Shown in pieces: positions 12,816 to 31,218 of a stretch of DNA of 64,000 nt. The DNA is taken from the IMG/VR virus record IMGVR_UViG_3300040781_000350, one strand, 5' to 3'. A model generated the notes under the pieces. It saw only the letters and a program-made list of their open reading frames with translations. It was not told the origin of the DNA and did not search any database. The position numbers were made by a program, and so were the translations under genes. The first letter of the stretch is position 1. Each line of letters starts with the position of its first letter. Origin of the DNA: a virus (Duplodnaviria; Heunggongvirae; Uroviricota; Caudoviricetes).

Positions 12816-12833
12816 ATATTGTATTACAGTTCC
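12816..12833 (-). promoter_or_regulatory. conserved early-type promoter-like element (variant), DNA ligase
   Basis: Copy of the conserved early-type promoter-like element, reading tatattgtattacagttcc. It ends 8 nt before the ligase ATG and overlaps the stop of the RlmN-like gene. Confidence 0.5.
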
Positions 12834-13768
12834 TTTGGTGCATGGACTTTTTCTAATCCATGACCTTTTGTCTTTTTAATTTTGTCTTTGTTTTTGTTCA
12901 TCCAGTCTTGAACATACCAAAGTTGACCGCATCCACCGCCAATATCATCTTGACCGGCTGGATTGAAAACACGGACGTTGTAACCTGCTTGTAACATCTT
13001 GGATGAAAAATCTTGTGCTAACTTCCGTTGCCGTTCATTTGCTGTGGCAATATTTTCATCGCGTTCACAAATAACTGATATTGTTGACTGCCAGATTGAC
13101 GGATCGAAATGTTTGACTAATCGATCAACATCTTCCTGTGAATCATTTTTATCATGAACACAATAATTAAAGAATGGTTTTCTACCACAAGCTTTATACC
13201 ATTCAACACCGGTTTCAGAAATCTGTTTTAGCGTCATTGTAGGGCTTGGAATTAACTTCTTTCTAGCTTCATCTGTCGATTCATGAACTGAAAACTGTAA
13301 CCCGATGGTTTGGATCCATTTAGAGATTTTATTCAACTCCTCGAAAGCTTTTATTCCGCCGATTGGAGCTGATGTTGAAATCAGAAGTGAAGCTGTAGGA
13401 TACATTGCATAAAGCGTACCGAGTGCTTTTGATAACTCATTAAAATTCAACATTGGTTCACCCATTGACATAAACATGATTTGCAGCTTATCGATATCAT
13501 TCGGATTACAATCGATCTCATTTTCCAACAAGTGTATTGATTGTGATGCAATCTCTTCACCTGTGAACGATCTTACGAAGTAGTCACCGGCGCCACAAAA
13601 CCGACACCCTACCGGACAACCAGATTGTGTAGAACAACAGATAACTGTTCGATCTTTGTATGTCGGATACTTATACAATACCGATTCTGCAACACCATTG
13701 TCCTGAGTGTAAACATACTTGTTTACATTTTCATCACTAGATGTTATTTTTTTAATATTATCCCACAT
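12824..13768 (-). CDS. RlmN/Cfr-family radical SAM RNA methyltransferase-like protein
   Basis: 314 aa. CCSTQSGCPVGCRFCGAG matches the RlmN signature S-Q-x-G-C-x3-C-x-F-C (radical SAM CX3CX2C). LQFSVHESTDEARKKLIP resembles RlmN ALSLHAPNDELR. C-terminal GGGCGQL matches the RlmN catalytic-Cys motif ACGQL. It lacks the N-terminal accessory domain of bacterial RlmN. Confidence 0.75.
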   Translation of the reverse strand: MWDNIKKITSSDENVNKYVYTQDNGVAESVLYKYPTYKDRTVICCSTQSGCPVGCRFCGAGDYFVRSFTGEEIASQSIHLLENEIDCNPNDIDKLQIMFMSMGEPMLNFNELSKALGTLYAMYPTASLLISTSAPIGGIKAFEELNKISKWIQTIGLQFSVHESTDEARKKLIPSPTMTLKQISETGVEWYKACGRKPFFNYCVHDKNDSQEDVDRLVKHFDPSIWQSTISVICERDENIATANERQRKLAQDFSSKMLQAGYNVRVFNPAGQDDIGGGCGQLWYVQDWMNKNKDKIKKTKGHGLEKVHAPKEL

Positions 13769-13780
13769 ACCGGTATTATA

Positions 13781-14365
13781 TTACAGTTCCAAAATCTTTT
13801 TCGATGTCGGTACCCAATCAGGATCAGTTTTCAACTTCATTGAGACTTTACGAAACAAATCAGCTGTTGAACCTTGCATTGTTGTTGGTACCGTATCTTG
13901 AACGGTCGAAAGACCAAAACTCTCAATCACACTAATGTAAGGTTTCTGTTCACCTTTCCAGTTCGTTGTAACACCAGCAACTCGTACTGCTGGAAATTCA
14001 CGGCCTATCCAATCATTACGAATATGTGGCTGAACAACAATTGCTGTTCGCATGTATAGTGAGCTGCCGCATCGACCAGGGTAGGATATAATTTGTCCTC
14101 GTTCAATCGGTTTACTGTATAAATCTGTAATATTATTAATAATTGCTTTTTTTGTTAAAAATTCTACTGCTTCTTCCATTGTTAGAACCTTTGCATTTTT
14201 ACCTTTTGGTCTTTGCATTGATTCAATTTTTTCTTGTTCGTTATTATAAAGACATCCTGAGCAAGTCCAACCCCCGAACATGCCGGGAGGGCATGAACCT
14301 CTTCCCTTCGAACATTTTTCAATGTTACCCTCCCGGCAGATACCACCTTGGTGTAAATAAACCAT
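13781..14365 (-). CDS. hypothetical protein with N-terminal Cys-rich (zinc-ribbon-like) region
   Basis: 194 aa, with C-x5-C…C-x…C-x2-C at the N-terminus. Confidence 0.5.
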   Translation of the reverse strand: MVYLHQGGICREGNIEKCSKGRGSCPPGMFGGWTCSGCLYNNEQEKIESMQRPKGKNAKVLTMEEAVEFLTKKAIINNITDLYSKPIERGQIISYPGRCGSSLYMRTAIVVQPHIRNDWIGREFPAVRVAGVTTNWKGEQKPYISVIESFGLSTVQDTVPTTMQGSTADLFRKVSMKLKTDPDWVPTSKKILEL

Positions 14366-14671
14366 TTACATAAACCAAGTTATAACCCAACCAAAAAGCA
14401 ATGCAAAAGCAGGCTTTAATACAGCAACCACAATACTAAAAATTATCTTTTCTTCTGACGTACGAGTATCTTCCGGTTCGTTACCGGAATAACCTTTAGT
14501 TAGATAATTTATAATTATCGCAATTCCGACTGCTACCGGGATTGTTAATGATGCAATACCAAATGTAGAAACGATAAACCATTCCCATAAGATGGTTAAT
14601 GCGTATCCGCTCCAGATTATACCGAGCGGTGTAATTAGTAATGCAATTACTGCTAGTGCTATTGTTTTCAT
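14366..14671 (-). CDS. small membrane protein (101 aa)
   Basis: Two or three hydrophobic helices. Confidence 0.5.
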   Translation of the reverse strand: MKTIALAVIALLITPLGIIWSGYALTILWEWFIVSTFGIASLTIPVAVGIAIIINYLTKGYSGNEPEDTRTSEEKIIFSIVVAVLKPAFALLFGWVITWFM

Positions 14672-14680
14672 ATTTTTGTT

Positions 14681-15412
14681 TTATTGCTTTGTAGTGGGCA
14701 TTAACCACATGTTATTGTTTGAGAAAACTTGCTCCTTGATCATGCTGTAGTATTCAAGCCGTGACAAGGTCAACATAGTATCAGCCTTGAAACACTTGAA
14801 CAATTCCTCACGGATACGCTCTTGTGAAACGTTCTTTAGACCACTTACGAACTCCATGTAGATCATGCAGCGATGAATATCCTGATGTAGGTTGAATCCC
14901 TTGGTGATTGAAAACCTGAAGTAGCGTAACATACGAAGGTAATCTTCCTTGATTCGATCTTCAGCATTTCCAACTGCACGGATAAGCTTCATATTAAGGT
15001 CATCCACCCCATGAAAAGGATCGATAATAGTACCATCAGCAAGATCAATAGCAATTGCATTTACAGTTGCGTCACGACGAGCAAGGTCATCTTCGATACA
15101 ATCAGCAATGTGGGTTACATCAGGCCGACGACCATCACTGTATTCACCATCCTTACGAGCAAGAGCAACATCAACTGCACCGAGTCCAGGAATGTTGCAT
15201 CGTAGAGTCAAAAACCCTTCAGTTGCAAGAAAGACCTCACCACCGATATCTTCAACAGCCTTCACCATGTCAGCAAAGGTAGGAGCTACCATACACAAAT
15301 CCAAGTCCTTAGGCTTGCTATTTGCGTCGATCAACTTATCACGTACCCACCCACCAACGATGTACGTTGGGAAGGGTAGCTTAATGTTAGGAATGTCTAA
15401 TACTGCTTGCAT
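14681..15412 (-). CDS. cca: tRNA nucleotidyltransferase (CCA-adding enzyme) / poly(A) polymerase family, head domain
   Basis: 243 aa. Signature GGxVRD (IVGGWVRDKLI) with DLDL catalytic carboxylates shortly after, then an RRD motif (DDLARRDATVNAIA). Confidence 0.8.
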   Translation of the reverse strand: MQAVLDIPNIKLPFPTYIVGGWVRDKLIDANSKPKDLDLCMVAPTFADMVKAVEDIGGEVFLATEGFLTLRCNIPGLGAVDVALARKDGEYSDGRRPDVTHIADCIEDDLARRDATVNAIAIDLADGTIIDPFHGVDDLNMKLIRAVGNAEDRIKEDYLRMLRYFRFSITKGFNLHQDIHRCMIYMEFVSGLKNVSQERIREELFKCFKADTMLTLSRLEYYSMIKEQVFSNNNMWLMPTTKQ

Positions 15413-15433
15413 ATGGTAATTATATGATTGTTC

Positions 15434-15805
15434 CTATCCGAAATACGGTTCGCTTTTTTTACTGAAAGGGTGCATTGCATCCCAATGTTTTTTATATGCT
15501 TCAGGATCTTTTTTCTTCATACGTTCTACTTCTTCAGCATATCGCTTCAACGGACGATTTGCAATCTCATTGAATTCATCCTGTGTAATGTTATTGAGAT
15601 TGATTTCAATATTTCGTAACTCAGGGCATCCAGTCTGCTCACCGCCAAACCGACGCTGTTCAGCACCTTCAGGGCTGAGATCGATCCCGTATTTGCAGTC
15701 ACATGTTGAAGGTTCTTTTTCGAACATCATACCGTCATAACTACATTTCGTGCGGCGAAGCAGATGGATGTATTTTCTGAGTGTTTCTATGTCTGTTGTA
15801 AACAT
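15434..15805 (-). CDS. hypothetical protein (124 aa)
   Basis: Start moved to MFTTDIE (15805). The upstream residues in the ORF track are the in-frame translation of the promoter element. Confidence 0.45.
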   Translation of the reverse strand: MFTTDIETLRKYIHLLRRTKCSYDGMMFEKEPSTCDCKYGIDLSPEGAEQRRFGGEQTGCPELRNIEINLNNITQDEFNEIANRPLKRYAEEVERMKKKDPEAYKKHWDAMHPFSKKSEPYFG

Positions 15806-15809
15806 AATA

Positions 15810-16493
15810 TTATAGCGGATTCTGAGTATCCTTACCGTGATGATCTGGAGCACTTCCATTTTGCTTATCCATGAACTTTCTCAGATCAGCAAAGTTGATC
15901 GGGTAATCATTCTCTTCAACGCTAACTTCGTAGCACTTCATCTTGGAATTCTTGTAAAGACGTCCGAGTTCAGACTTAACGAGAGTTCCATGAACATGAC
16001 TGTAAAGCATGTAAGACCCTCCGCCTTGACCATTCCAACTCAACACTGGGTAATGACTCAAGCACACAGCTTGACCATTGACAAATGCTTCGAAGTAGTT
16101 TGGAGTAAACACAACTTGCTTACCCCCGAGATCGAGAACATTTTCATCAACACCGCTAAAGCTTTGATGCCAACCCGCATAGTGATTACCAGCAGGTAGG
16201 TAAAGAGTCTTGAAGCTCAATCGGTTCAGCAATTCTTCGAATGCTTCCTTCCCACCTGCGCCGAACATAGTATCACCAAGTAGGAAACCAACAGTATTCT
16301 CATTAGCTACTTCGTTCCAACGTTGGATCAAAGTCTCTCTATGATCAAGAACGGAATCAAATCCGCGCATCTTCCATAGCGGTACCTTCCACTTTGGATC
16401 ATGATTAGCATGCAAGCATCCCCAGAACAGAACTTCCTTAGGATCTGCCTTAACCTTAACTGGCTTGTAAAATAAATCTTTTAAATTCGACAT
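15810..16493 (-). CDS. calcineurin-like metallophosphoesterase (putative)
   Basis: 227 aa. GCLHANHD, GDTMFG and AGNHYAG resemble phosphoesterase motifs I-III. Start set at MSNLKDL (16493), directly after a promoter element at 16497-16515. Confidence 0.5.
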   Translation of the reverse strand: MSNLKDLFYKPVKVKADPKEVLFWGCLHANHDPKWKVPLWKMRGFDSVLDHRETLIQRWNEVANENTVGFLLGDTMFGAGGKEAFEELLNRLSFKTLYLPAGNHYAGWHQSFSGVDENVLDLGGKQVVFTPNYFEAFVNGQAVCLSHYPVLSWNGQGGGSYMLYSHVHGTLVKSELGRLYKNSKMKCYEVSVEENDYPINFADLRKFMDKQNGSAPDHHGKDTQNPL

Positions 16494-16500
16494 ATGCGTA

Positions 16501-16941
16501 TTATAAATGTGTTCCTGTTGCAAGTTGAACATAAAATGGTACAAGAGCAATAAGCGTTACTGCGTGAATAAGCTGATCGATTCCAATTGTATTCCAAAAT
16601 GCTTTATATTGATCACGTTGCCAGAATCGAGCTGTAAGTCTACTTGTACACCAATCTGTTGCAAAATGTGTTACAAAAATATAAAAATATATTAACATAT
16701 GAAACGAAAATGATCCCCAAAATCCCATATTAGGCAGCTCTGTTACAAAGCAAAGCGGCATCAAGATAAAAAGAAAAATCATCATGAATACAGTCCCTGT
16801 ATAAATCGTAACGTGATCTAACATAACCCTGTTATCTGAGATTTTTTGTGTACCTATTTTTCTACTCTGAAGTAGAAAATCTCCGATATAATGCCCACTA
16901 AGTAAGACAGCTATAAAATAAATTGTAATATATTCAATCAT
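16501..16941 (-). CDS. small membrane protein
   Basis: Hydrophobic 147-160 aa protein. Start tentatively at MIEYITIY (16941), which has the GGAG Shine-Dalgarno-like sequence (GGAGAAGATT) 7 nt upstream. Alternative starts up to 16983. Confidence 0.4.
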   Translation of the reverse strand: MIEYITIYFIAVLLSGHYIGDFLLQSRKIGTQKISDNRVMLDHVTIYTGTVFMMIFLFILMPLCFVTELPNMGFWGSFSFHMLIYFYIFVTHFATDWCTSRLTARFWQRDQYKAFWNTIGIDQLIHAVTLIALVPFYVQLATGTHL

Positions 16942-17069
16942 AATCTTCTCCAATTCCAACTGTTCGATGTGCATATCTCTCACCGCAAGAATATTCAGCG
17001 AGCTCTGAACTGCATAGAGATAATGTTCCGTCCTTCACTCTCTGAAAAAACAGATCGATCTCTAATTCC

Positions 17070-17906
17070 TCAATCATGGTCTTCGAGATCGATGTAAATT
17101 TTGTCGTTGAACCATGACCAATCTTGTTTAAAGACTGGCGTCTCGTTATCAATGTACCATTTTGTTCTGACAGGTACCTCACCGATTTTAATATCTGGAT
17201 GCATATCAGGAAATGCTACTGTTTCAAATTTCTTATAACAAGACGAACCATGCTGTTTGGTAACTGGTAGTTCATACCAATCAGCGTCATCATCTTCATT
17301 TGACATTAACATCTCTTTAAGCTTAGCTGTATTCTTACCTTGTAACTCTTTATGTGAGTAATAAGCTCGAGCTTGCATCTGAACACTGTTTTTTGCAGCA
17401 TCTTGCATTCTCCACCACAAGCAGTTTAAAACTTCATAACGTTGTGATAGTGGAAACACACGAGCATCGAATTGAGCTTGTTTCATTACCATTGCATCAG
17501 CTACAGCAGTTTCATCTAACTGATTACCATAATCAGGTGTTATAGCACGAACCATTCGCAACTGATTAAACTTACTTGTTGCAAGACTTGCAGCAACACT
17601 TGTGATCTTTTGGATGTTTCCGCCAAACCAGATATCAGCTTCACGGCTCATCAGGTCAGTAAACACGATTGTGATATCATCTGATTGTGTATAACCAAAC
17701 TGCGCACCCTGGATATTCTCACAAAGAAACTTCATCGTCTCTTGCATATCTTCGATCATACCTTCATCGAATGGTCGATCCAACCCTTTTGTATAGGTAT
17801 GAAATGCTTTACCATCGATGCGTAGCACGTAATATTGTTTTGGTGAAAGATATGTACGAGTGATATTCTCGTAACCTTTCATGCGATCTCCTAATTCATC
17901 ACTCAT
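17070..17906 (-). CDS. tRNA-His guanylyltransferase (Thg1)-like 3'-5' nucleotide polymerase
   Basis: 278 aa. YYVLRIDGKAFH matches the Thg1 motif RIDGRxFH. GYTQSDDITIVF matches the Thg1 catalytic motif GQSDEYSF. Confidence 0.75.
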   Translation of the reverse strand: MSDELGDRMKGYENITRTYLSPKQYYVLRIDGKAFHTYTKGLDRPFDEGMIEDMQETMKFLCENIQGAQFGYTQSDDITIVFTDLMSREADIWFGGNIQKITSVAASLATSKFNQLRMVRAITPDYGNQLDETAVADAMVMKQAQFDARVFPLSQRYEVLNCLWWRMQDAAKNSVQMQARAYYSHKELQGKNTAKLKEMLMSNEDDDADWYELPVTKQHGSSCYKKFETVAFPDMHPDIKIGEVPVRTKWYIDNETPVFKQDWSWFNDKIYIDLEDHD

Positions 17907-17912
17907 GTTGTT

Positions 17913-17932
17913 ATAATATCGTTGTTCCTATT
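17913..17932 (-). promoter_or_regulatory. conserved early-type promoter-like element (variant), Thg1-like gene
   Basis: Copy of the conserved early-type promoter-like element, reading ttataatatcgttgttcc, 6 nt from the ATG. Confidence 0.5.
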
Positions 17933-18069
17933 TTACCAACAAAACCATCCGCCGCATTTATTACATTTAACACCACCACGTGGTTGTGCTTGGATATCAT
18001 GATCACATTCTGTATCAGCATCCCAAAGTTCATCTAATTCTGAGACGTTTTCTTTTATTTCATCACCCA

Positions 18070-18486
18070 TTACAGCTTAATGTTATTGAGGATCTTCTCC
18101 TTTTGCTTTGCAACTACCTCAGCAGGTACCCCATGTACGTTTTCACTCCCATGCAAGTTCTGAACAACATAGCTCACAACTACATAACCATGCTTTTCAG
18201 CAAGTTCGATATACGGCTTACGTTCTTTACCTGTTGTATTGGTGTTGTCAACAATGATACATGCAGTTCTTTTCAACATATTCAGCTCGACCTGATCTTT
18301 GCACCAAGCATGAGCTTGGCCGAGTTTACTCGGATCGAAATCATAACCATCACCCCAGAATAAATCAGCACTACATATTTCACAATCTGGGTGCAAAGTT
18401 TCGATGAACTTGCTAAAGGTAGACTTACCGCTGCCTGACGCTCCGACAGGCAGGATAAGTACTTTGTTTTGAATTAATGGATTCAT
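18070..18486 (-). CDS. P-loop polynucleotide kinase-like protein (kinase domain only)
   Basis: 138 aa. Walker A GASGSGKST at the N-terminus, as in the T4 Pnk kinase domain. Context of RNA ligases and phosphoesterases. Confidence 0.6.
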   Translation of the reverse strand: MNPLIQNKVLILPVGASGSGKSTFSKFIETLHPDCEICSADLFWGDGYDFDPSKLGQAHAWCKDQVELNMLKRTACIIVDNTNTTGKERKPYIELAEKHGYVVVSYVVQNLHGSENVHGVPAEVVAKQKEKILNNIKL

Positions 18487-18509
18487 ATAGCTATTATGTT
18501 AATGTTCCT

Positions 18510-18710
18510 TTACTTGCTTACTCGCTCACGAATTTCTGCAAGAGAATGCTCGATCAAAAGCTCCATAAGGTCATCAGAACTTTGAATCCTAGCTTCAATA
18601 ACCTCTGTTGGCTCGTTATGGTAAATTGCTCCGGCAGCAACATGTACCTCACCACCACTGAATACATGGCGATTGAAATTAATATGCTTGTTTTTTTCTA
18701 GTTTAATCAT
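18510..18710 (-). CDS. hypothetical protein (66 aa)
   Basis: ORF in an operon. Confidence 0.4.
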   Translation of the reverse strand: MIKLEKNKHINFNRHVFSGGEVHVAAGAIYHNEPTEVIEARIQSSDDLMELLIEHSLAEIRERVSK

Positions 18711-18721
18711 AATTGTTTTGT

Positions 18722-18928
18722 CTATTTAAATTGTGTATCCATGTTGATATTAAACGAACGGAAAACATAGTATAGTGATCCGATGTAAAATATCACCCAA
18801 GTACTCCATGTTGCAAAAACGAAACTATTCCAAGGTAGTTCATATATCACACCTGTAGACCACAGGGTAGCAAAAAACATCAATATGGAAATGAATTTAT
18901 GTTTATGTTTTAAAAATCGTCGTATCAT
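18722..18928 (-). CDS. small membrane protein (68 aa)
   Basis: Two hydrophobic helices. Promoter element at 18934-18952. Confidence 0.4.
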   Translation of the reverse strand: MIRRFLKHKHKFISILMFFATLWSTGVIYELPWNSFVFATWSTWVIFYIGSLYYVFRSFNINMDTQFK

Positions 18929-18932
18929 ATGT

Positions 18933-19715
18933 TTATATTACTGTTGTTCCTTTTTTACATCTACCTTTGAACCACCCGTTTGGTATTTCAGTTTTGGTTA
19001 AATCAACTTGTTTCATTGTTACACCATTGGTAATCCAATTTGTTCCTTTCTTCGCTTCACTCATTCTTTTTCTTGTACTAGTCTTTTTTGCAATACCTTT
19101 CTGTTTTATGCTTATTTTACGTTTAACATCATCAGGACGCTGTTTACCATAATGACCATTATTCGCGCCTTTATTTTTACCTTTCATGCTTTGTGAGATT
19201 TTTCTACAATGATCTTTAGAAAATTTCTTGCCTTTGTTAGTACCGGTTCGACCAATATTTGTTTCACTTATTCTTTTTTTATGTCTTTCAGTCATTCCTC
19301 TCACCCAACCTTCAGGTATATTTTTCAGTTTACACCATTTTTCATTATTACCATCGTTTATTAATACTAAACCATCACGTGCATGTTTCATACTTTCTCG
19401 CCATCGAACCCTGTAATACTCAAACATTCTTGATGATGTAATACGACCTACACCGTTAATACCAGTTTTAAAAAAAGATAAAGCGGATAGAGCTCTTAAC
19501 ATTTTATAATACTCAACAGAGCCTTTTATTTGCATTTTTACTAGTAGTAAATGCGCAATAAAATGTTCTCTCGGAGATAATAAAACTATATTACTATGTT
19601 TATTATCTCCACCAATACTTTTTGGTATAATATGATGTCTTTCAGCATGGCATGATGTTGATGGATCTGATTTGCGTTTTTTGACAAGTGATTTGTAAAC
19701 AGTATGATAATTCAT
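18933..19715 (-). mobile_element. HNH homing endonuclease with C-terminal NUMOD3-like DNA-binding repeats
   Basis: 260 aa. HNH motif HHIIPKSIGGDNKHSNIVLLSPREHFIAH. Four C-terminal repeats of the pattern [KR]xISxxxKG (RHKKRISETNIG, HCRKISQSMKGK, VKRKISIKQKG, TRKRMSEAKKG). Inserted between the kinase and the RNA ligase genes. Confidence 0.85.
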
Positions 19716-19729
19716 ACTATTATTTATAT

Positions 19730-20740
19730 TCAGCTTTCGGTATACTGGTAATTGATCGTTTTGAAGCTTAGATCTTTGTTAAGTCGTTCACTATAAAGAT
19801 GATTGCGAAGTCTCCATACAAGCCCTTCAGCAGTTGCACCATTAGCATACTTCACTTTCTTCGCTTCTTCGACAAGATCATCAGCTGTTTCCCATTTGAA
19901 TGGACCTTCATAGTAAAGATCAACCATAGGAATACCAAGCGTAGTGCAGATTTGAACTGATTCATTCCAGTCGCAAAGAATACGACGATCAAGCTTCCAA
20001 ACATTGAACACCCGGGCGTCAACACCTTTAAGCTTTTCTGGATTCTTTTGAATACCTTCACCTACAAGCTCCAACTGGAGACCAATACCCACAGGTAGCT
20101 TCTCTTTAAGGTTGTACTTGAATACAGGTTGCCAATATTTGCTGTTTCCTGATTCTTTGATTTCGAGATTACGAGAGCAAACTTTGAAACCGTCTTCGGC
20201 ATGATTAACGATAGTTACAGAACTACCATCATGCTTAACAGTTGCAACAACATCTCGCCCTTTCATCATTTCGATAATATCAGGCATATTCTCAAGACGT
20301 TCTTCATCGGTCTTTGGTACAAGATGTGTCGGAAACGACCCAGCTACGTCACCACTTTCATACGATACAGGTTTTTCGTATTTCTCAACACCGAGATATT
20401 CACCCACATCAGTATCAATCAAATCATTCGGGTCGACATCATAATAGCTTGCTGGGAGATATTTCATAAGCTCACCAAGAGGCATAATTAGTCCATTGCT
20501 GTATTCACCACGAAGCTTGATAATATTAATCCTGAACTTCTTATTTTCTAGGAAGCTGAATTCTGGTTTATCTTTCGGCGCAATAGTATCGACCGGGATA
20601 TAAACGACGAGATCATCCACTTTGAAATCAACTGCGCTAATTACACGCCAGCTGAGACCATACATCTTAAAGATGGTGAGTGAATCTGCATTTGGATGCT
20701 CAATAACATCCGAGATTTTTTGTATTGTTGCTAGTTTCAT
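19730..20740 (-). CDS. RNA ligase (nucleotidyltransferase motif KHDGSS) with N-terminal OB/tRNA-binding-like domain
   Basis: 336 aa. N-terminal IEHPNADSL resembles the tRNA-binding OB domain (HPDADKL). Motif I KHDGSS sits mid-protein, an architecture like DraRnl/NgrRnl (Rnl5-type). Confidence 0.6.
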   Translation of the reverse strand: MKLATIQKISDVIEHPNADSLTIFKMYGLSWRVISAVDFKVDDLVVYIPVDTIAPKDKPEFSFLENKKFRINIIKLRGEYSNGLIMPLGELMKYLPASYYDVDPNDLIDTDVGEYLGVEKYEKPVSYESGDVAGSFPTHLVPKTDEERLENMPDIIEMMKGRDVVATVKHDGSSVTIVNHAEDGFKVCSRNLEIKESGNSKYWQPVFKYNLKEKLPVGIGLQLELVGEGIQKNPEKLKGVDARVFNVWKLDRRILCDWNESVQICTTLGIPMVDLYYEGPFKWETADDLVEEAKKVKYANGATAEGLVWRLRNHLYSERLNKDLSFKTINYQYTES

Positions 20741-20749
20741 ATTATATTT

Positions 20750-21091
20750 TTATTTTTGTTTCTTGTAGTTAACAAAGTCTCTACGTAAAACATTTCCAGT
20801 TTTTTGAAAATTTCTGATGAACATTAAGTTGTAGTTTTTTAGACTCTTCTGTTTATCGTAATACCCGAATACCTTTGCATTAAATTTTACAACATCACCT
20901 GAACGGAATTTAAAGCCAGCAGGTGCAGTGATCCAAACATGATCTGCAACATCAATATCTTTATGTATCACGTCTTTAATCAAAAGATAATGACCACCGA
21001 TCTTGCGTGGATTAATTGTTTGTATAGTTGCAGTTACTTCGATCAATTGACCTTTGAACTGCTCCATTGCTTCTCTGAATTTACTTTTCAT
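20750..21091 (-). CDS. hypothetical protein (113 aa)
   Basis: ORF overlapping the Rnl1 stop by 11 nt. Confidence 0.45.
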   Translation of the reverse strand: MKSKFREAMEQFKGQLIEVTATIQTINPRKIGGHYLLIKDVIHKDIDVADHVWITAPAGFKFRSGDVVKFNAKVFGYYDKQKSLKNYNLMFIRNFQKTGNVLRRDFVNYKKQK

Positions 21092-22178
21092 CCAATACTG
21101 ATTTGATTATTTTTTTGATTGTTTGGTTTGGTATTTCCATTCCTTTACGTTTCTTAAATGCAACATCTTTCCATGGATTTCTGTACGTCATTTGCATTAA
21201 GAACGCAAAATCCTTATCCGAAAGATTTTTGTGCATTTGTGCATATTCATCGATTTTGTTGATTGAAACATCAACAGATTTTTTAACTTCATCTAGATTT
21301 TGAACAAGTTCCTCAACCATGCACCAGCATTCATAATCAAATGTGTTTTTGATATATTTTTTAAATGCTTTGAATGATGGAAAATCCTGATCAGCATAAA
21401 GATTAAGAATATTCTTTTCAGTTGCATTTGATTTAAACGAATGTAACTTGAGATACTCTGCTGATTTTACTTTCCATAAATCATTACCTTGGTATATGAC
21501 ACAACCTTCAATACCAGATGCTTTTTCGATCGTAGATAGAAGTTCGCTCAGGTCATTGAACTCATATTTCTTCGGACGTGGCACAAGCATCTCCATTGCA
21601 AATGAATCAAGCATTACCTGAGATTCTAGCTCGTATGTATTCTTGTTAATTGCTCCGATCAGATACAAATCGATTTCGGGGTAGTCCAAAACAATCCGCT
21701 GATTAGGTGTTACAATTTCGAAAAGTAATGATAAATGAGTATGGTTCTGCATCCAAGGACGGATGTTATAGTACTTGTCAAGAGCAACATCGAAATCAGC
21801 GCTATTGTCTAAAGTAACGTAGCTTTCAGTACCTCTGGTACGAACGTTGAACATGTTCTCACATGCATCGACAATCATTAACGAGCCATCCTCTTTAGAT
21901 ACAATTCTCGAATCTAACAGATCAGTTGGAGGCGGAAAGTTACCAGGGTTTTCACCAAAATTAACGAACTTAGGAAAGCCGCAGCTTAAGGGCTGAAAAT
22001 CTGACTTACGGTAAATAAGTGAGCGTAAAAATTTATTTTCCTGCGTCCATTCGACACTAGGCAGACCTGGAGTAATTAAACATGCCTCATCGCCAAAGAA
22101 TGTAATATCTCTTTGTATAAATTCCTCGATTGGTACACTTTTGAGTGCAGCCTCTACGCGTTTTTGTGCTAAGTTCAT
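21081..22178 (-). CDS. rnlA: RNA ligase 1 (T4 RnlA-like)
   Basis: 365 aa against 374 aa for T4 Rnl1. KFVNFGENP vs T4 KFFNLNENP. Motif I IVSKEDGSLM vs T4 ILTKEDGSLV. LLFEIVTPNQRIVLDY vs T4 ANFEFVAPTNRIVLAY. IEGCVIYQGNDLWKVKSAEYLKLHSFKS vs T4 [29 protein letters not shown]. Confidence 0.9.
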   Translation of the reverse strand: MNLAQKRVEAALKSVPIEEFIQRDITFFGDEACLITPGLPSVEWTQENKFLRSLIYRKSDFQPLSCGFPKFVNFGENPGNFPPPTDLLDSRIVSKEDGSLMIVDACENMFNVRTRGTESYVTLDNSADFDVALDKYYNIRPWMQNHTHLSLLFEIVTPNQRIVLDYPEIDLYLIGAINKNTYELESQVMLDSFAMEMLVPRPKKYEFNDLSELLSTIEKASGIEGCVIYQGNDLWKVKSAEYLKLHSFKSNATEKNILNLYADQDFPSFKAFKKYIKNTFDYECWCMVEELVQNLDEVKKSVDVSINKIDEYAQMHKNLSDKDFAFLMQMTYRNPWKDVAFKKRKGMEIPNQTIKKIIKSVLDEK

Positions 22179-23035: not shown

Positions 23036-23845
23036 TTATTGGAATTGTGTGTCGTGACTTAAAAAATGTTGTGTAATAACACCATTTTGTATAATTGCAT
23101 AGCTCATTTGCATACAGTCAATACAGTAGTTTTTTAAACCAATCCCATTTTTCTTTTCTCGTTTGATTTTACTGTTAATTGTAGTATGACCAACAACTTG
23201 TCTTACTTCATCAAGGGGCACGAATTCATAATTCCAATCAAGCCAAACAGGGCTCCCAACATCGCTCAGACCCATCCGACATGCACCGACATCCCATATC
23301 CAATGACCAGCTTCAAACATAAAATGATGTTTTGTTTTATCCCAGTCATCACTCAAACGTTGGATATTATCCAGTTCGCTCATGAATGGTTTAAAATGTG
23401 ATGTGTGAAATCCTGCATGTGAAACAACAATATCATCACCGATTTGTGTACAAAGCTTTAGCGATTCAACCCATTTTGGATCGATATCCTTATTAAAAGT
23501 TTTTGCTTTACTTTTTGACCAACCAGAGCAAAAATAGTCTGAATTTGATTTAGTGTTGATATAGTTTTTATTATATGATGCTAAGTATGCAACATCATGA
23601 TTACCAACATGCCAAATAGCGCGATCACCAAATTCTTCAAACCGTTCTCTGATCCATTCACATGTTGCACCAACACCATATATAATTGCTCCGTCTGGTG
23701 TTCTGAATGTATCGAAATAGTCACCGTTAAAGATTACAATCTCCCAATCACGTTCAGCTTCTAATACGAGGTCAGCAAAGCCACCAATGTTTTGGTGTAT
23801 GTCCGGAATTACTAGTACTTTTGTTTCTTTTGATATTTTTCTCAT
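23036..23845 (-). CDS. calcineurin-like metallophosphoesterase
   Basis: 269 aa with clear motifs: VIPDIHQN (DxH), FNGDYFDTF (GDxxD), HVGNHDVAY (GNHD). Last gene of the RNA-repair module. Confidence 0.7.
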   Translation of the reverse strand: MRKISKETKVLVIPDIHQNIGGFADLVLEAERDWEIVIFNGDYFDTFRTPDGAIIYGVGATCEWIRERFEEFGDRAIWHVGNHDVAYLASYNKNYINTKSNSDYFCSGWSKSKAKTFNKDIDPKWVESLKLCTQIGDDIVVSHAGFHTSHFKPFMSELDNIQRLSDDWDKTKHHFMFEAGHWIWDVGACRMGLSDVGSPVWLDWNYEFVPLDEVRQVVGHTTINSKIKREKKNGIGLKNYCIDCMQMSYAIIQNGVITQHFLSHDTQFQ

Positions 23846-23990: not shown

Positions 23991-24206
23991 CTAATTTCCA
24001 GTAATTTTAATACTATGAAAGCTGTTCATTGATCTAGTAAACCCCTTTTCATCCCGTGCAAGAAACGCAGCAGTAGGGGCATGCCATTCAACAACACCTA
24101 CAAAGATTGGATTCTTATAATCGTTACGCACTTCGCAGGTAATTTTATCACCTGCGCATACTTCTTGACCATTATCAGCAAATATTCCAGTTTGTTTATA
24201 TTTCAT
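23991..24206 (-). CDS. hypothetical protein (71 aa)
   Basis: ORF. Confidence 0.4.
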   Translation of the reverse strand: MKYKQTGIFADNGQEVCAGDKITCEVRNDYKNPIFVGVVEWHAPTAAFLARDEKGFTRSMNSFHSIKITGN

Positions 24207-24574
24207 GATTGGTGCTGAAAGCTATGCAGGTAACATTCTATATTCCTTTTACCTACTGGGTTCATACTATGACACATCCAATCTGATGTTAAATCAATAT
24301 TTTTGTTCATGCAGAATTTTACTAACCACTTTGCACAATCATAACCTGTCTTCTCGAGATCTCCATTCGCATTATCACCTGCAGCATAATGAACATCAGC
24401 TAGATCATGATCGAATGAGATAAAGTCTGGAAGTTCATTATATAAAATGAAGTGATCACTGATAGTTTTTACAAACTCATCATAATTACGGACAATTGTC
24501 CATGTACCAACATCTGGCAATTTCACATGGGTTGTGAATTGCGGGCTTCGTATATCATCTAAAAATAAGTTCAT
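24203..24574 (-). CDS. hypothetical protein (123 aa)
   Basis: ORF with ATGA overlaps on both sides. Confidence 0.45.
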   Translation of the reverse strand: MNLFLDDIRSPQFTTHVKLPDVGTWTIVRNYDEFVKTISDHFILYNELPDFISFDHDLADVHYAAGDNANGDLEKTGYDCAKWLVKFCMNKNIDLTSDWMCHSMNPVGKRNIECYLHSFQHQS

Positions 24575-26186: not shown

Positions 26187-26606
26187 TTATTTTCCGTTTG
26201 TTAATTCATCAACGACATTACGTAATTTACTACGTTTTACAATGCGAGCCATGTTTAAATAGTGATCTTCCGGGCTTGGTTGCCAATTATTATACCATAC
26301 ATCTGGTAAACTACAAGCAGATCCTAAGATTTTTTCATATTGCTCATGATTAAGATTGTAGTTTCTGTGTATGAGTTCATGATAAATTGTAAAATACCGT
26401 CTTGATAACCACTGTAACTTATTGTAAAAGAATTTGTTATGGCCTGTATTAAGACAATACTGCTCAGGTATGTCAACATCTTCTACTGTTTTACCTTTTT
26501 CGATAAGCTTTCTTACCGCGGTAAAGATGCGAGGCAGTTCTTTATATTCTGCCATCAAATGTTTATTTGTAAGATACCCGGGTGATATTGTATTAATCCT
26601 CGTCAT
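26187..26606 (-). CDS. denV: endonuclease V, pyrimidine-dimer DNA glycosylase/AP lyase (T4 DenV-like)
   Basis: 139 aa against 138 aa for T4 DenV. MTRINTISPGYLTNKHLMAEYKELPRIFTAVRK vs T4 [33 protein letters not shown]. Confidence 0.85.
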   Translation of the reverse strand: MTRINTISPGYLTNKHLMAEYKELPRIFTAVRKLIEKGKTVEDVDIPEQYCLNTGHNKFFYNKLQWLSRRYFTIYHELIHRNYNLNHEQYEKILGSACSLPDVWYNNWQPSPEDHYLNMARIVKRSKLRNVVDELTNGK

Positions 26607-30324: not shown

Positions 30325-31218
30325 TTAGTCTGTTATAAATGTTGGAGAGAACTCTTTATATTCTCTGAGTGCAATTTCACTTACACCTTCTACAATCTTC
30401 TTCTTGTCGCATGCATAGAGACCAGAGCAGCTAAATGCACCGACTTCTAAAACATATGGTTTCATACCAGCATCAAGACATACATCAAGAATCCATACTG
30501 AACACGGATTGTAATCAGTTGTATCAGCCAGCACACGATCAACGAATGCATTCAAATGCCCTGGAGCTTCTTTTCTATTTGGTTTACCATCCCATGAGTA
30601 TTGACTACTTGCAATAATCTTGCGATCACCAATAACATAACGATACTCACCAAGAATAACTTTCGGTGTTGATGCAACAACTAGATCAGTAGGTTGGCCA
30701 CCATAACCAATTACAGCATGCCAATCCTTATGAAAGTGTTTGCGTTCAAACAACTGACCGGTAAATGTTTTACGACCAGAAGACGGACGAATAAAAATTG
30801 TTTCATATGAACCAAGCCAATCATACAAATCATCAAGACGCCTTTCAACTTCGCCAAGAGGTAACATGATGTACTTATCATTGAACAAATAGTCTCCGAA
30901 AAACTGATAGTAATACTTACATGAAAATTGTTCAACATTATCCCAGATAGCAGGAAGCCAATCTGTATACTTGCAAATCCGTTCAGCGCTCTGAATAGAT
31001 GTTTGGGCAACAACACAACTATCTTGTTCAAAGTAATCGGTATACTCATCGCATGGGTTCGCAAGATCGGCTTCTTTAACATCATAACCGAGATCACGAG
31101 CTGCTTGAATTAACTCTTTCGTTGAATCATCATTTGCGATGTCTTCAATAAACCACTTTACAGTATTCTGTTTTGTCATTTTGCTTATTACAATTATGTT
31201 TATCTGCTTGTTGAGCAA
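30325..31218 (-). CDS. ATP-grasp domain protein (putative)
   Basis: 297 aa. A central block IFIRPSSGRKTFTGQLF resembles the ATP-grasp Lys/Gly-rich loop. Overall size fits phage ATP-grasp families. Confidence 0.5.
   Translation of the reverse strand: MLNKQINIIVISKMTKQNTVKWFIEDIANDDSTKELIQAARDLGYDVKEADLANPCDEYTDYFEQDSCVVAQTSIQSAERICKYTDWLPAIWDNVEQFSCKYYYQFFGDYLFNDKYIMLPLGEVERRLDDLYDWLGSYETIFIRPSSGRKTFTGQLFERKHFHKDWHAVIGYGGQPTDLVVASTPKVILGEYRYVIGDRKIIASSQYSWDGKPNRKEAPGHLNAFVDRVLADTTDYNPCSVWILDVCLDAGMKPYVLEVGAFSCSGLYACDKKKIVEGVSEIALREYKEFSPTFITD

Follow-up and report, generated by a model that had tools for sequence, protein, structure and literature searches.

What a Thg1-like protein (TLP), a predicted 3'-5' nucleotidyltransferase, might do for a tailed phage is the question raised by one gene in the 64-kb stretch of viral DNA analysed here (the window). 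The window belongs to a distant T4-like myovirus, as the first-pass annotation had supposed: its portal protein matches phrog_213 (E=4e-99), a tail-sheath stabiliser and a gp63-type RNA ligase are also encoded, and the best phage matches, at ~30% identity, are to T4-like cyanophages and Vibrio phages. A megablast search of positions 14000-21500 against GenBank phages gave zero matches, and the phage therefore has no close sequenced relative. The gene in question is the following.

17070..17906, minus strand: Thg1-like protein (TLP), 278 aa, predicted templated 3'-5' nucleotidyltransferase (Pfam, PHROG, PDB, AF2, Foldseek and catalytic-residue mapping)

Family, fold and active site of the protein

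The gene is an intact open reading frame, ATG to TGA, that occupies exactly 17070-17906 and encodes 278 residues. An identical protein is recorded on four metagenomic contigs, the longest of 221,420 bp, and bears the JGI name 'tRNA(His) 5'-end guanylyltransferase'. Both hallmark motifs on which the first-pass annotation had based its assignment are present, RIDGKAFH as residues 29-36 (window 17799-17822) and GYTQSDDITIVF as residues 71-82 (window 17661-17696). Profile searches agree with that assignment: the protein matches Pfam PF04446 (Thg1) with E=3.7e-27 and 95.3 bits against a gathering cut-off of 29.2, the match covering profile positions 2-129 of 130, and PHROG 4717 with E=1e-78, while no NCBIfam model matches it. 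The Bacillus thuringiensis Thg1-like protein (BtTLP, PDB 4kgk) is matched with E=1.4e-48 across residues 3-273, as compared with 5.8e-6 for another characterised TLP (5axk) and, among eukaryotic Thg1 structures, 2e-3 for 3wbz and 2e-2 for 3otb. The segment aligned to HINNLYN, which we take to be the mark of eukaryotic Thg1, reads AKNSVQM (residues 171-177). The absence of this motif and the far stronger match to 4kgk than to 3wbz or 3otb group the protein with bacterial TLPs rather than with eukaryotic Thg1. The AF2 model is confident (pLDDT 90.1, pTM 0.88), has the palm-plus-fingers fold typical of Thg1 and finds BtTLP as its best Foldseek match, with a TM score of 0.87-0.89 normalised by target length; all 32 PDB matches at E<=1e-3 are Thg1 or TLP structures, and GGDEF domains follow at E>1e-2. 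The product of 17070-17906 is a bacterial-type TLP of the Thg1 family; direct observation extends to the family it belongs to, its fold, the conservation of its active site and its gene context.

Residue roles assigned in BtTLP (PMC3701042) were mapped onto the protein and onto two samples of relatives, of 121 and 151 sequences. The two metal-binding aspartates are present as D31 and D76 (D30 and D75 in BtTLP, D29 and D76 in the human enzyme), and their positions are conserved in 121/121 and 148-150/151 relatives. The residues that hold the triphosphate in BtTLP (R28, K99, R131 and R16) are identical in R29, K100, R149 and R17, E12 and R147 are retained as E13 and R166, and S75 and H36 are likewise identical to their role-bearing counterparts. 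All of these positions are invariant or nearly so in both samples except those of R17 and H36, which vary across the broader sample. Thus, two of the three carboxylates proposed for checking are in place; the third, E76 in BtTLP and E77 in the human enzyme, has undergone a conservative change to aspartate (D77). Glutamate occupies this position in 271/271 other sequences, and aspartate is found in the window protein only. Neither outcome that the first-pass annotation had named as refuting its assignment, the lack of a significant profile match or the loss of the catalytic carboxylates, was obtained, the third carboxylate being present as aspartate.

Of the RNA contacts described for MaTLP, R136 and N137, which touch the tRNA 5' end, are kept as K172 and N173, and the elbow-binding R215 is kept as R247, carried by a β-hairpin with strands 221-229 and 246-253. 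The MaTLP residues that read the His anticodon (F174, N179 and R188) align to M201, D209 and Q218. The 120 closest matches at first suggested a unique loss of this site (N209D, K218Q, N211Y, R219H). This suggestion was reduced to a weak hint, because an exhaustive search showed the positions to vary among 50%-identity representatives: they vary family-wide, and the aspartate and the glutamine are minority states found in 30/151 and 22/151 sequences. The segment is the most acidic among the sequences compared, with a net charge of -5 against a median of 0, and includes an acidic run at 203-209.

The RNA-repair island and related loci

The TLP gene lies in a ~10-kb island, from 14.7 to 24.6 kb, in which eight RNA-end-processing genes share one strand. 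The CCA-adding enzyme and RNA ligases reported nearby by the first-pass annotation are there, and the island is larger than had been noted. Its other features are as follows.

14681..15412, minus strand: class-II tRNA nucleotidyltransferase of the CCA-adding type, a short form of 243 aa with no more than the head and neck domains
15810..16493, minus strand: phosphoesterase, 227 aa, candidate 3'-end healing enzyme (phrog_547 'phosphoesterase', E=7.2e-31)
18070..18486, minus strand: Pnkp-like kinase, 138 aa, weak homology (Pfam AAA_33, E=2.7e-10; tRNA_lig_kinase, E=1.2e-3)
18933..19715, minus strand: HNH/NUMOD3 homing endonuclease, inserted in the island (phrog_655, E=6.2e-36; Pfam HNH and NUMOD3)
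19730..20740, minus strand: Rnl5-type ATP-dependent RNA ligase, 336 aa, N-terminal OB plus nucleotidyltransferase domain
21081..22178, minus strand: T4 Rnl1 (gp63)-type RNA ligase, 365 aa (phrog_562, E=8.4e-37)
23036..23845, minus strand: calcineurin-like metallophosphoesterase of 269 aa, also a candidate for end healing (passes the Pfam PF00149 cut-off, E=1.3e-10)
24203..24574, minus strand: cREC (cyclic-phosphate processing receiver) domain protein, 123 aa (Pfam PF20274, E=1.5e-20)

The ligases, kinase, phosphoesterases and cREC protein make up a putative heal-and-seal set on one strand within 10 kb. The Rnl5-type ligase is assigned by Pfam RNA_ligase (E=1.6e-18), PHA02142 OB (E=7.8e-14), the Naegleria RNA ligase 5cot (E=2.5e-31) and the TIGR02306 DRB0094 family (E=1.3e-38), and the Rnl1-type ligase by TIGR02308 (E=2.2e-12) and T4 Rnl1 itself (2c5u, E=1.1e-8). 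The CCA-adding enzyme matches the Pfam PolyA_pol head (E=4.1e-24), phrog_24229 over its full length (E=1.8e-45) and NF009814 CCA tRNA nucleotidyltransferase over its N-terminal half only (E=1.3e-37). The kinase has the C. thermocellum Pnkp kinase domain as its best PDB match (4gp7, E=4e-5) and scores E=5e-9 against the N-terminus of TIGR04075 Pnkp, far under the full-length cut-off; a tryptophan aligns with the C. thermocellum arginine three residues past the aligned catalytic aspartate. The 227-aa phosphoesterase, whose start is taken as the ATG of the JGI gene call (the mechanical reading frame extends to 16550), is assigned by PHROG only and has no match in Pfam, NCBIfam or PDB sequences, and a PDB sequence search with the calcineurin-like metallophosphoesterase gave no match. 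The cREC domain has been tied to the processing of 2',3'-cyclic phosphate ends (PMC7824862). The homing endonuclease is a mobile element that stands outside the repair function. When the island was scanned for promoters and terminators, scores were at or below shuffled expectation and set no operon boundaries, and no structured RNA or tRNA gene was found in the 64-kb window by Rfam at the gathering threshold or by ARAGORN.

Related loci show how far this arrangement is shared. In one related phage (L004) the TLP is 54% identical and six of the eight RNA-end-processing genes occur as orthologues in a different order, among them the 227-aa phosphoesterase (36% identity) and the calcineurin-like metallophosphoesterase (60%). 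Among 52 dereplicated viral TLP loci, tblastn finds one or more repair-type neighbours within 10 kb in 21 and none in 31; the neighbours are an Rnl5-type ligase in 12, a phosphoesterase in nine, a CCA enzyme in eight and a kinase in five, and the control genes thymidylate synthase, portal and DNA ligase lie near TLP in two, zero and eight of the same loci. The association of TLP with repair genes across viral loci is thus only moderate. It is almost absent from the 80 closest cellular-genome loci, where a homologue of the kinase occurs once and a Walker-A reading frame adjoins the TLP gene in four. The published linkage of Thg1 with polynucleotide kinase was expected and was seen in only 5/52 viral and 1/80 cellular loci, counts that are lower bounds because a single-sequence tblastn with the window's kinase is insensitive.

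Proposed role and its alternatives

Phage-directed repair of tRNA 5' ends was what the first-pass annotation had read into the neighbourhood. That RNA-repair genes surround TLP is confirmed, and repair itself is the most reasonable inference from it. Because the gene stands in an RNA-repair island of which six genes are conserved in L004, the best reading is the templated 3'-5' rebuilding of tRNA 5' ends, and it is somewhat probable that TLP works within a tRNA-repair island of the phage and restores truncated tRNAs in this way. Two earlier studies (PMC2904730 and PMC7824862) independently arrived at this reading, which strengthens it. What we infer is which RNA the protein acts on, its catalytic activity and its use against defences, with the mechanism modelled on BtTLP and MaTLP. 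ATP or GTP would activate the 5'-monophosphate of a 5'-truncated tRNA at the two-metal site of D31 and D76. An incoming NTP, paired to the 3' strand of the acceptor stem and with its triphosphate held by R29, K100, R149 and R17, would then attack the activated end through its 3'-OH. The new 5'-triphosphate would enable further additions, which would stop at +1 once the β-hairpin with R247 no longer reaches the tRNA elbow. The adjacent Pnkp-like kinase may first phosphorylate the 5'-OH ends made by nucleases, the Rnl1- and Rnl5-type ligases may reseal loop breaks and duplex nicks, the phosphoesterases and cREC protein may heal 3' ends and the CCA-adding enzyme may restore the tRNA 3' tail. The island would keep the tRNA pool usable in infection, most plausibly against host tRNA-cleaving defences. 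Several observations count against this reading: the replacement of an otherwise invariant glutamate by D77, the modest link of TLP to repair genes in viral loci and its near absence from cellular ones, and the weak match of the kinase to Pnkp. Moreover, a search for known anti-phage nucleases that shorten tRNAs on the 5' strand gave none; those described cleave in the anticodon, in the T or D loop, at the CCA tail or in the acceptor stem on its 3' strand.

The name carried by most homologues, tRNA-His guanylyltransferase, suggests instead that TLP maintains G-1 of a host or phage tRNA-His by adding G opposite C73, rather than serving in general repair. BtTLP does add G-1 opposite C73 in vitro, but it favours 5'-truncated tRNAs by 5-160-fold and accepts any tRNA identity, not tRNA-His alone (PMC3061083). 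MaTLP has a second binding mode that depends on the His anticodon (PMC4820378); at that site, D209 and Q218 of the window protein replace the majority N and K, a weak point since the positions are variable. Arrays of tRNA genes lie near TLP in some related phage loci and three of them include tRNA-His, yet in all three of these tRNA-His genes the G at -1 is already encoded, opposite C73, and the window has zero tRNA genes. A G-1 function is therefore rather unlikely.

The tRNA arrays, which lie within 5-7 kb of TLP in L004 and in another related locus (L006), also bear on the possibility that TLP is a housekeeping enzyme for maturation or quality control of phage-encoded tRNAs, not for counter-defence, for example in repair after imprecise RNase P cleavage or in 5'-editing of acceptor stems with mismatches, as in amoebal mitochondria. 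The only proven physiological roles of TLPs are indeed mitochondrial tRNA maturation and 5'-editing (PMC11957112; PMC6471195), and tRNA genes occur within 10 kb of TLP in 16/52 dereplicated viral loci. However, the 7-bp acceptor stem is fully paired in 112 of the 118 distinct phage tRNA genes found in TLP loci, and a mismatch at pairs 1-3 occurs in only one, a tRNA-Met(CAU). Bacterial initiator tRNAs typically have a mismatch at 1:72. The survey thus reveals no editing-type substrates among the phage tRNAs and leaves a need for 5'-editing unsupported. As the window is without tRNA genes and the partners of TLP are repair-type ligases, kinase and phosphoesterases rather than tRNA-processing enzymes, a housekeeping role is judged unlikely.

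The repair reading can also be carried further. TLP and the kinase could be the 5'-end arm of a complete system that covers both ends and the loops and counters an undescribed immune nuclease that takes nucleotides off the 5' strand of the acceptor stem, and D77 and the acidic patch at 203-209 could then reflect a way of using NTPs or metal, or of binding substrate, that is specific to the phage. This extension is speculative and improbable as a whole.

Reduced or altered activity is possible because at D77 an otherwise invariant glutamate is replaced, and the protein might be catalytically impaired or drifting. In BtTLP this glutamate is salt-bridged to R147 and packs on R28, two residues that matter for activity, but it does not ligate metal (PMC3701042), and its exchange for aspartate is conservative. 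The reading frame is intact and of full length, all other functional residues are retained, the AF2 model is confident, the same sequence recurs on four contigs and the protein deviates from the family consensus at eight positions, fewer than the 13 in BtTLP, a proven enzyme. Impairment is accordingly very unlikely. ATP-dependent ligases adenylylate their own substrates by their established mechanism, and a helper would be unnecessary. For this reason, and because the tRNA 5'-end and elbow contacts of MaTLP are conserved, it is highly improbable that TLP acts on non-tRNA RNAs or mainly 5'-adenylylates ends for its two RNA ligase neighbours, even though ligation through a 5'-App intermediate has been raised as a possibility (PMC2904730) and RNA recognition is broader in TLPs than in Thg1 (PMC6471195).

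Precedents and comparison with known systems

The first-pass annotation was not aware of tRNA 5'-end repair having been described within a phage anti-defence toolkit. Novelty is not supported, since the family is already named as PHROG 4717, at least 164 GenBank phages and at least 534 IMG/VR contigs have homologues (those of the GenBank phages mostly under the name tRNA-His guanylyltransferase), and phage Thg1 was proposed as an anti-defence RNA-repair enzyme by Anantharaman et al. in 2010 (PMC2904730) and Iyer et al. in 2021 (PMC7824862). According to a 2025 preprint, functions have been established for only two TLPs, both from Dictyostelium (PMC11957112); phages go unmentioned in a review of the family from 2019 (PMC6471195), and no experimental study of any phage TLP was found in the literature. 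Phage repair islands provide circumstantial evidence that 3'-5' polymerisation rebuilds damaged tRNA 5' ends in vivo and suggest that host defences may attack the tRNA 5' end, an idea already present in the comparative-genomics literature. The window adds one more instance, unusually complete, together with one odd active-site substitution. Cultured TLP-carrying phages, such as Bacillus phage Bcp1 and its relatives, Vibrio phage 1.170.O and Caulobacter phiCbK-like phages, would be better test systems than the uncultured phage of the window.

The closest characterised protein is BtTLP (PDB 4KGK/4KGM), which repairs 5'-truncated tRNAs in vitro by templated 3'-5' addition (PMC3061083). The two share homology over their full length (33-36% identity in Foldseek alignments), the same fold, the two metal aspartates and the binding residues for both the activating and the incoming NTP. 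The window protein differs in its aspartate as third carboxylate, in insertions at ~123-143 and in the hairpin loop at ~230-245, in its acidic run, and in being encoded by a phage inside a large repair island, its activity being predicted. Eukaryotic Thg1 (human 3OTB, C. albicans 3WBZ) has the same palm-domain fold and two-metal site but only weak sequence similarity to it (E=2e-3 to 2e-2), and AKNSVQM stands at the HINNLYN position.

The phage members of PHROG 4717, which include Bacillus phage Bcp1 gp164, Xanthomonas phage XacN1 ORF126/585 and Vibrio phage 1.170.O gp208, belong to large virulent phages and often have a CCA-adding enzyme or metallophosphatase near the TLP gene. The window protein is of the same family and 30-44% identical to GenBank copies by one comparison, with at most 42% identity to any GenBank copy by another; the region has no nucleotide match, and its repair context is unusually complete, whereas the Bcp1 copy lies among hypothetical genes. 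The repair toolkits of jumbo phages (PMC7824862) and the published Thg1, kinase and ligase neighbourhoods (PMC2904730) have the same components (ATP-dependent RNA ligases, polynucleotide kinase, phosphoesterases, cREC, CCA-adding enzyme and Thg1) and the same counter-defence logic. The window genome, unlike the surveyed jumbo phages, is that of a T4-like phage of ~221 kb, and linkage to a homologue of its kinase is, unlike in the published neighbourhoods, confined to the few viral and cellular loci counted above.

The T4 pathway of Pnkp and Rnl1, which counters PrrC, is likewise a phage heal-and-seal system for tRNA restoration, and its Rnl1-type ligase, kinase and phosphoesterase activities have counterparts in the window, where two unrelated proteins, from different families, supply the kinase and the phosphatase. 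The T4 pathway is not known to include a Thg1-like or a CCA-adding enzyme. The extra end-rebuilding enzymes of the window point to the repair of nucleotide loss, beyond that of breaks alone.

Family, fold and active site of the phage TLP

The Thg1-like protein (TLP) gene is an intact ORF of 278 codons, ATG-to-TGA, on the minus strand (window 17070-17906), and its boundaries agree with an independent JGI gene call. Both motif blocks quoted in the first-pass annotation are confirmed, RIDGKAFH at residues 29-36 and GYTQSDDITIVF at residues 71-82. An identical protein (P0001) occurs on four metagenomic contigs, the longest of 221,420 bp, and is named 'tRNA(His) 5'-end guanylyltransferase' in the JGI record. 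The Thg1-family membership proposed from the motifs is borne out by profile search, with matches to Pfam Thg1 (PF04446; E=3.7e-27, 95 bits, cut-off 29) and PHROG 4717 'tRNA-His guanylyltransferase' (E=1e-78). In a PDB sequence search, TLP matches Bacillus thuringiensis TLP (BtTLP, 4kgk) over residues 3-273 with E=1.4e-48 and an archaeal TLP (5axk) with E=6e-6, while eukaryotic Thg1 structures reach 2e-3 to 2e-2 only. The AlphaFold model, with 64 homologues as input, is confident (pLDDT 90.1, pTM 0.88); Foldseek gave 32 significant PDB matches to it, every one a Thg1/TLP structure, headed by BtTLP (TM 0.87-0.89, target-length normalised). The stronger matches to BtTLP and 5axk than to eukaryotic Thg1, together with the matches of the modelled fold, place TLP with the bacterial-type TLPs rather than the eukaryote-type Thg1 enzymes, and its membership of the family is secure. 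The protein is divergent, at most 60% identical to anything on record and at most 42% to any GenBank phage, and at the nucleotide level the TLP region has no match among GenBank phages.

In BtTLP, D30 and D75 coordinate both metals, R28, K99', R131 and R16' grip the incoming NTP by its triphosphate, E12 links R28 to R131, and the activating NTP is contacted by S74 and H35; E76, the third carboxylate, turns away from the metals, packing against R28 and making a salt bridge to R147 (PMC3701042). TLP was compared with its 120 closest relatives and, from an exhaustive search, with 150 sequences that each represent a 50%-identity cluster. The BtTLP functional residues kept identically are D31, D76, R29, K100, R149, R17, E13, S75, H36 and R166. 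Of the three catalytic carboxylates that the first-pass annotation expected, D31 and D76 are thus present, and the third is Asp (D77, codon GAT, window 17676-17678) where the other sequences have Glu (271/271). E77D, at a position otherwise invariant, is a genuine oddity, and it is a conservative, second-shell change that costs no metal ligand; the carboxylate loss named as evidence against the assignment was therefore not found. Residue 167, which adjoins the Arg whose BtTLP counterpart pairs with the third carboxylate, is Met in TLP and Q in 120/120 other close relatives and 127/151 diverse ones; D77 and Met167 may be a coupled change. The E77D change keeps alive the reading that TLP is degenerating, but this is unlikely given the intact ORF, the confident model and the count of consensus deviations, 8 in TLP against 13 in the active BtTLP.

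The RNA-repair island and its recurrence

The window phage is a distant T4-like myovirus, as had been proposed: its portal matches phrog_213 (E=4e-99), with best matches of ~30% identity in T4-like cyanophages and Vibrio phages, and it encodes a tail-sheath stabiliser, a gp63-type ligase, thymidylate synthase and DNA ligase. Also in the window are a pyrimidine-dimer DNA glycosylase (Pyr_excise, cf. T4 denV; 26187-26606), an R2K-clade ATP-grasp protein (30325-31218) and a weak radical-SAM-like protein (12824-13768), whose gene adjoins that of the DNA ligase. Every gene at ~14.7-24.6 kb lies on the minus strand in tight packing.

Genes of the RNA-repair island, in the direction of transcription
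24203-24574, minus: cREC 'cyclic-phosphate processing receiver' protein (Pfam E=1.5e-20), first
23036-23845, minus: calcineurin-like phosphoesterase, second
21081-22178, minus: T4 Rnl1-type ligase (phrog_562 E=8e-37; 2c5u E=1e-8)
19730-20740, minus: Rnl5-type ligase (Naegleria ligase 5cot E=2.5e-31)
18933-19715, minus: HNH/NUMOD3 homing endonuclease, between Rnl5-type ligase and kinase
18070-18486, minus: P-loop kinase, 138 aa (top PDB match 4gp7, E=4e-5)
17070-17906, minus: TLP, after the kinase
After TLP, minus: DUF3307 membrane protein
After the DUF3307 protein, minus: PHROG-547 phosphoesterase
14681-15412, minus: CCA-adding-type nucleotidyltransferase, 243 aa, last

The island is unusually complete. 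It holds the CCA-adding enzyme and both RNA ligases that the first-pass annotation had placed near TLP; the cREC and calcineurin-like phosphoesterase genes, just upstream of the ligases, extend that gene list. The 4gp7 structure is the kinase domain of the RNA-repair enzyme Pnkp of C. thermocellum. In the alignment with it, the island kinase retains the P-loop as well as the aligned Asp, taken here to be the general base, and has Trp for the Arg three residues on; it matches the N-terminal half only of phrog_2071 (282 positions). The CCA-adding-type enzyme consists of head and neck, without the tRNA-binding body and tail of the ~400-aa bacterial enzymes. It matches phrog_24229, a 245-position phage family profile, end to end, its orthologue in the related locus L004 has 237 aa, and it is apparently a minimal form conserved in phages. 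A JGI-called ORF of 66 aa (18510-18710) weakly resembles the N-terminal part of ribose-phosphate pyrophosphokinase (phrog_619, E=1e-4) and is perhaps what remains of a gene beside the homing endonuclease. Small ORFs flank TLP on either side, at 17933-18070, with a TAATG stop/start overlap with the kinase, and at 16934-17077, whose start overlaps the TLP stop codon (ATGA). The one of 45 aa has a Cys-rich stretch close to its C-terminus (KCNKCGGWFCW) and is perhaps a zinc ribbon; tblastn against the related loci gave no homologue of either ORF. Promoter and terminator scans of the island were uninformative.

A related phage, represented by L004 and L005, carries a TLP 54% identical to that of the window and orthologues of six island genes in a different order (Rnl5 65%, Rnl1 58%, CCA enzyme 52%, Metallophos 60% and phosphoesterase 36% identity), and its inserted endonuclease is LAGLIDADG in place of HNH. 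In L002 the TLP gene is paired with a metallophosphatase, and in L007 it occurs with a PHA02142-OB protein, RlaP and an AAA_33 kinase. Among 52 dereplicated IMG/VR loci, at least one repair-type neighbour was found by tblastn within 10 kb in 21, a lower bound (Rnl5 12, phosphoesterase 9, CCA enzyme 8, kinase 5), against 0 to 8 for control genes in the same loci; among the 80 closest loci from cellular genomes the association is nearly absent. The island context is thus genuine and recurs among phages, but it is moderate in strength and does not hold for the family as a whole. Homing endonucleases lie in or beside repair genes as HNH/NUMOD3 in the window, LAGLIDADG in L004 (6970-7923) and GIY-YIG in L006 (10347-11042) and L007 (9192-10139), and the island looks like a hotspot for different families of them. 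Arrays of tRNA genes lie 5-7 kb from the TLP gene in L004 (3 tRNAs, 15002-15288) and L006 (11, 14017-16536).

tRNA contacts and the proposed repair role

A profile alignment with MaTLP, a TLP with mapped tRNA contacts, recovers the residue numbering of its paper (PMC4820378). The tRNA 5'-end contacts R136/N137 are kept as K172/N173, and R215, the conserved hairpin Arg at the tRNA elbow, as R247. The modelled hairpin has strands 221-229 and 246-253 and a longer, less confident loop than that of BtTLP. The MaTLP His-anticodon site, F174/N179/R188, is needed for G-1 addition to tRNA-His and dispensable for general repair (PMC4820378); it aligns with M201/D209/Q218. An acidic two-residue insertion brings the net charge of the TLP segment to -5, where the median is 0 in the 120 closest hits. 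The segment had looked uniquely altered against these hits, a view weakened by the diverse sample, in which the aligned positions vary (D at 209 in 30/151, Q at 218 in 22/151). The state of the site speaks only weakly against a role specific to tRNA-His.

Dedicated G-1 addition to tRNA-His is likewise not favoured, since the 64-kb window has no tRNA gene and all three phage tRNA-His genes in TLP loci already encode G-1 opposite C73. Those of L041 and L059 (L059 3855-3929), with G-1 opposite C73, show T-T mismatches at acceptor pairs 4 and 5. There is no support for 5'-editing of phage tRNAs in the mitochondrial manner, as acceptor stems are perfect in 112 of 118 distinct phage tRNA genes and the sole mismatch at pairs 1-3 is 1:72 in a tRNA-Met(CAU), a mismatch typical of bacterial initiator tRNAs.

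With family, fold, residues and context established, tRNA repair by TLP is a reasonable reading, for which we infer substrate, activity and purpose. BtTLP prefers truncated tRNAs 5-160-fold and is active beyond tRNA-His (PMC3061083). On the model of BtTLP and MaTLP, TLP would activate the 5'-phosphate of a 5'-shortened tRNA with ATP or GTP, add nucleotides singly with the 3' strand of the acceptor stem as template, and stop at +1. The neighbouring kinase would make 5'-OH ends usable for TLP. Between them, the two ligases, the phosphoesterases with cREC, and the CCA-adding enzyme would take care of broken loops, nicked duplexes, blocked 3' ends and lost 3' tails.

Standing among known systems

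The suggestion that tRNA 5'-end repair by a Thg1-like protein is new to the phage anti-defence toolkit does not hold. The family comprises 3,747 clusters at 50% identity (E<=1e-10), with homologues in at least 164 GenBank phage records, mostly named tRNA-His guanylyltransferase, and at least 534 IMG/VR stretches. The repair prediction is already published: Thg1 neighbourhoods with polynucleotide kinase and RNA ligase were described by Anantharaman, Iyer and Aravind in 2010 (PMC2904730), and in the jumbo-phage RNA-repair toolkits of Iyer et al. 2021 Thg1 is listed next to the CCA-adding enzyme (PMC7824862). A 2019 review of the Thg1 field leaves phages unmentioned (PMC6471195), a 2025 preprint regards the majority of TLP functions as still undefined (PMC11957112), and no experimental study of any phage TLP was found in the literature. 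The interest of the present TLP lies in its unusually complete repair island and in its unique substitution of Asp for Glu at an active-site position that is otherwise invariant. Among described anti-phage tRNases, none truncating the tRNA 5' strand was found; their targets are the anticodon, the T or D loops, the 3' strand of the acceptor stem, which is cut by retron Eco2, and the CCA tail, which is cut by Cas12a3.
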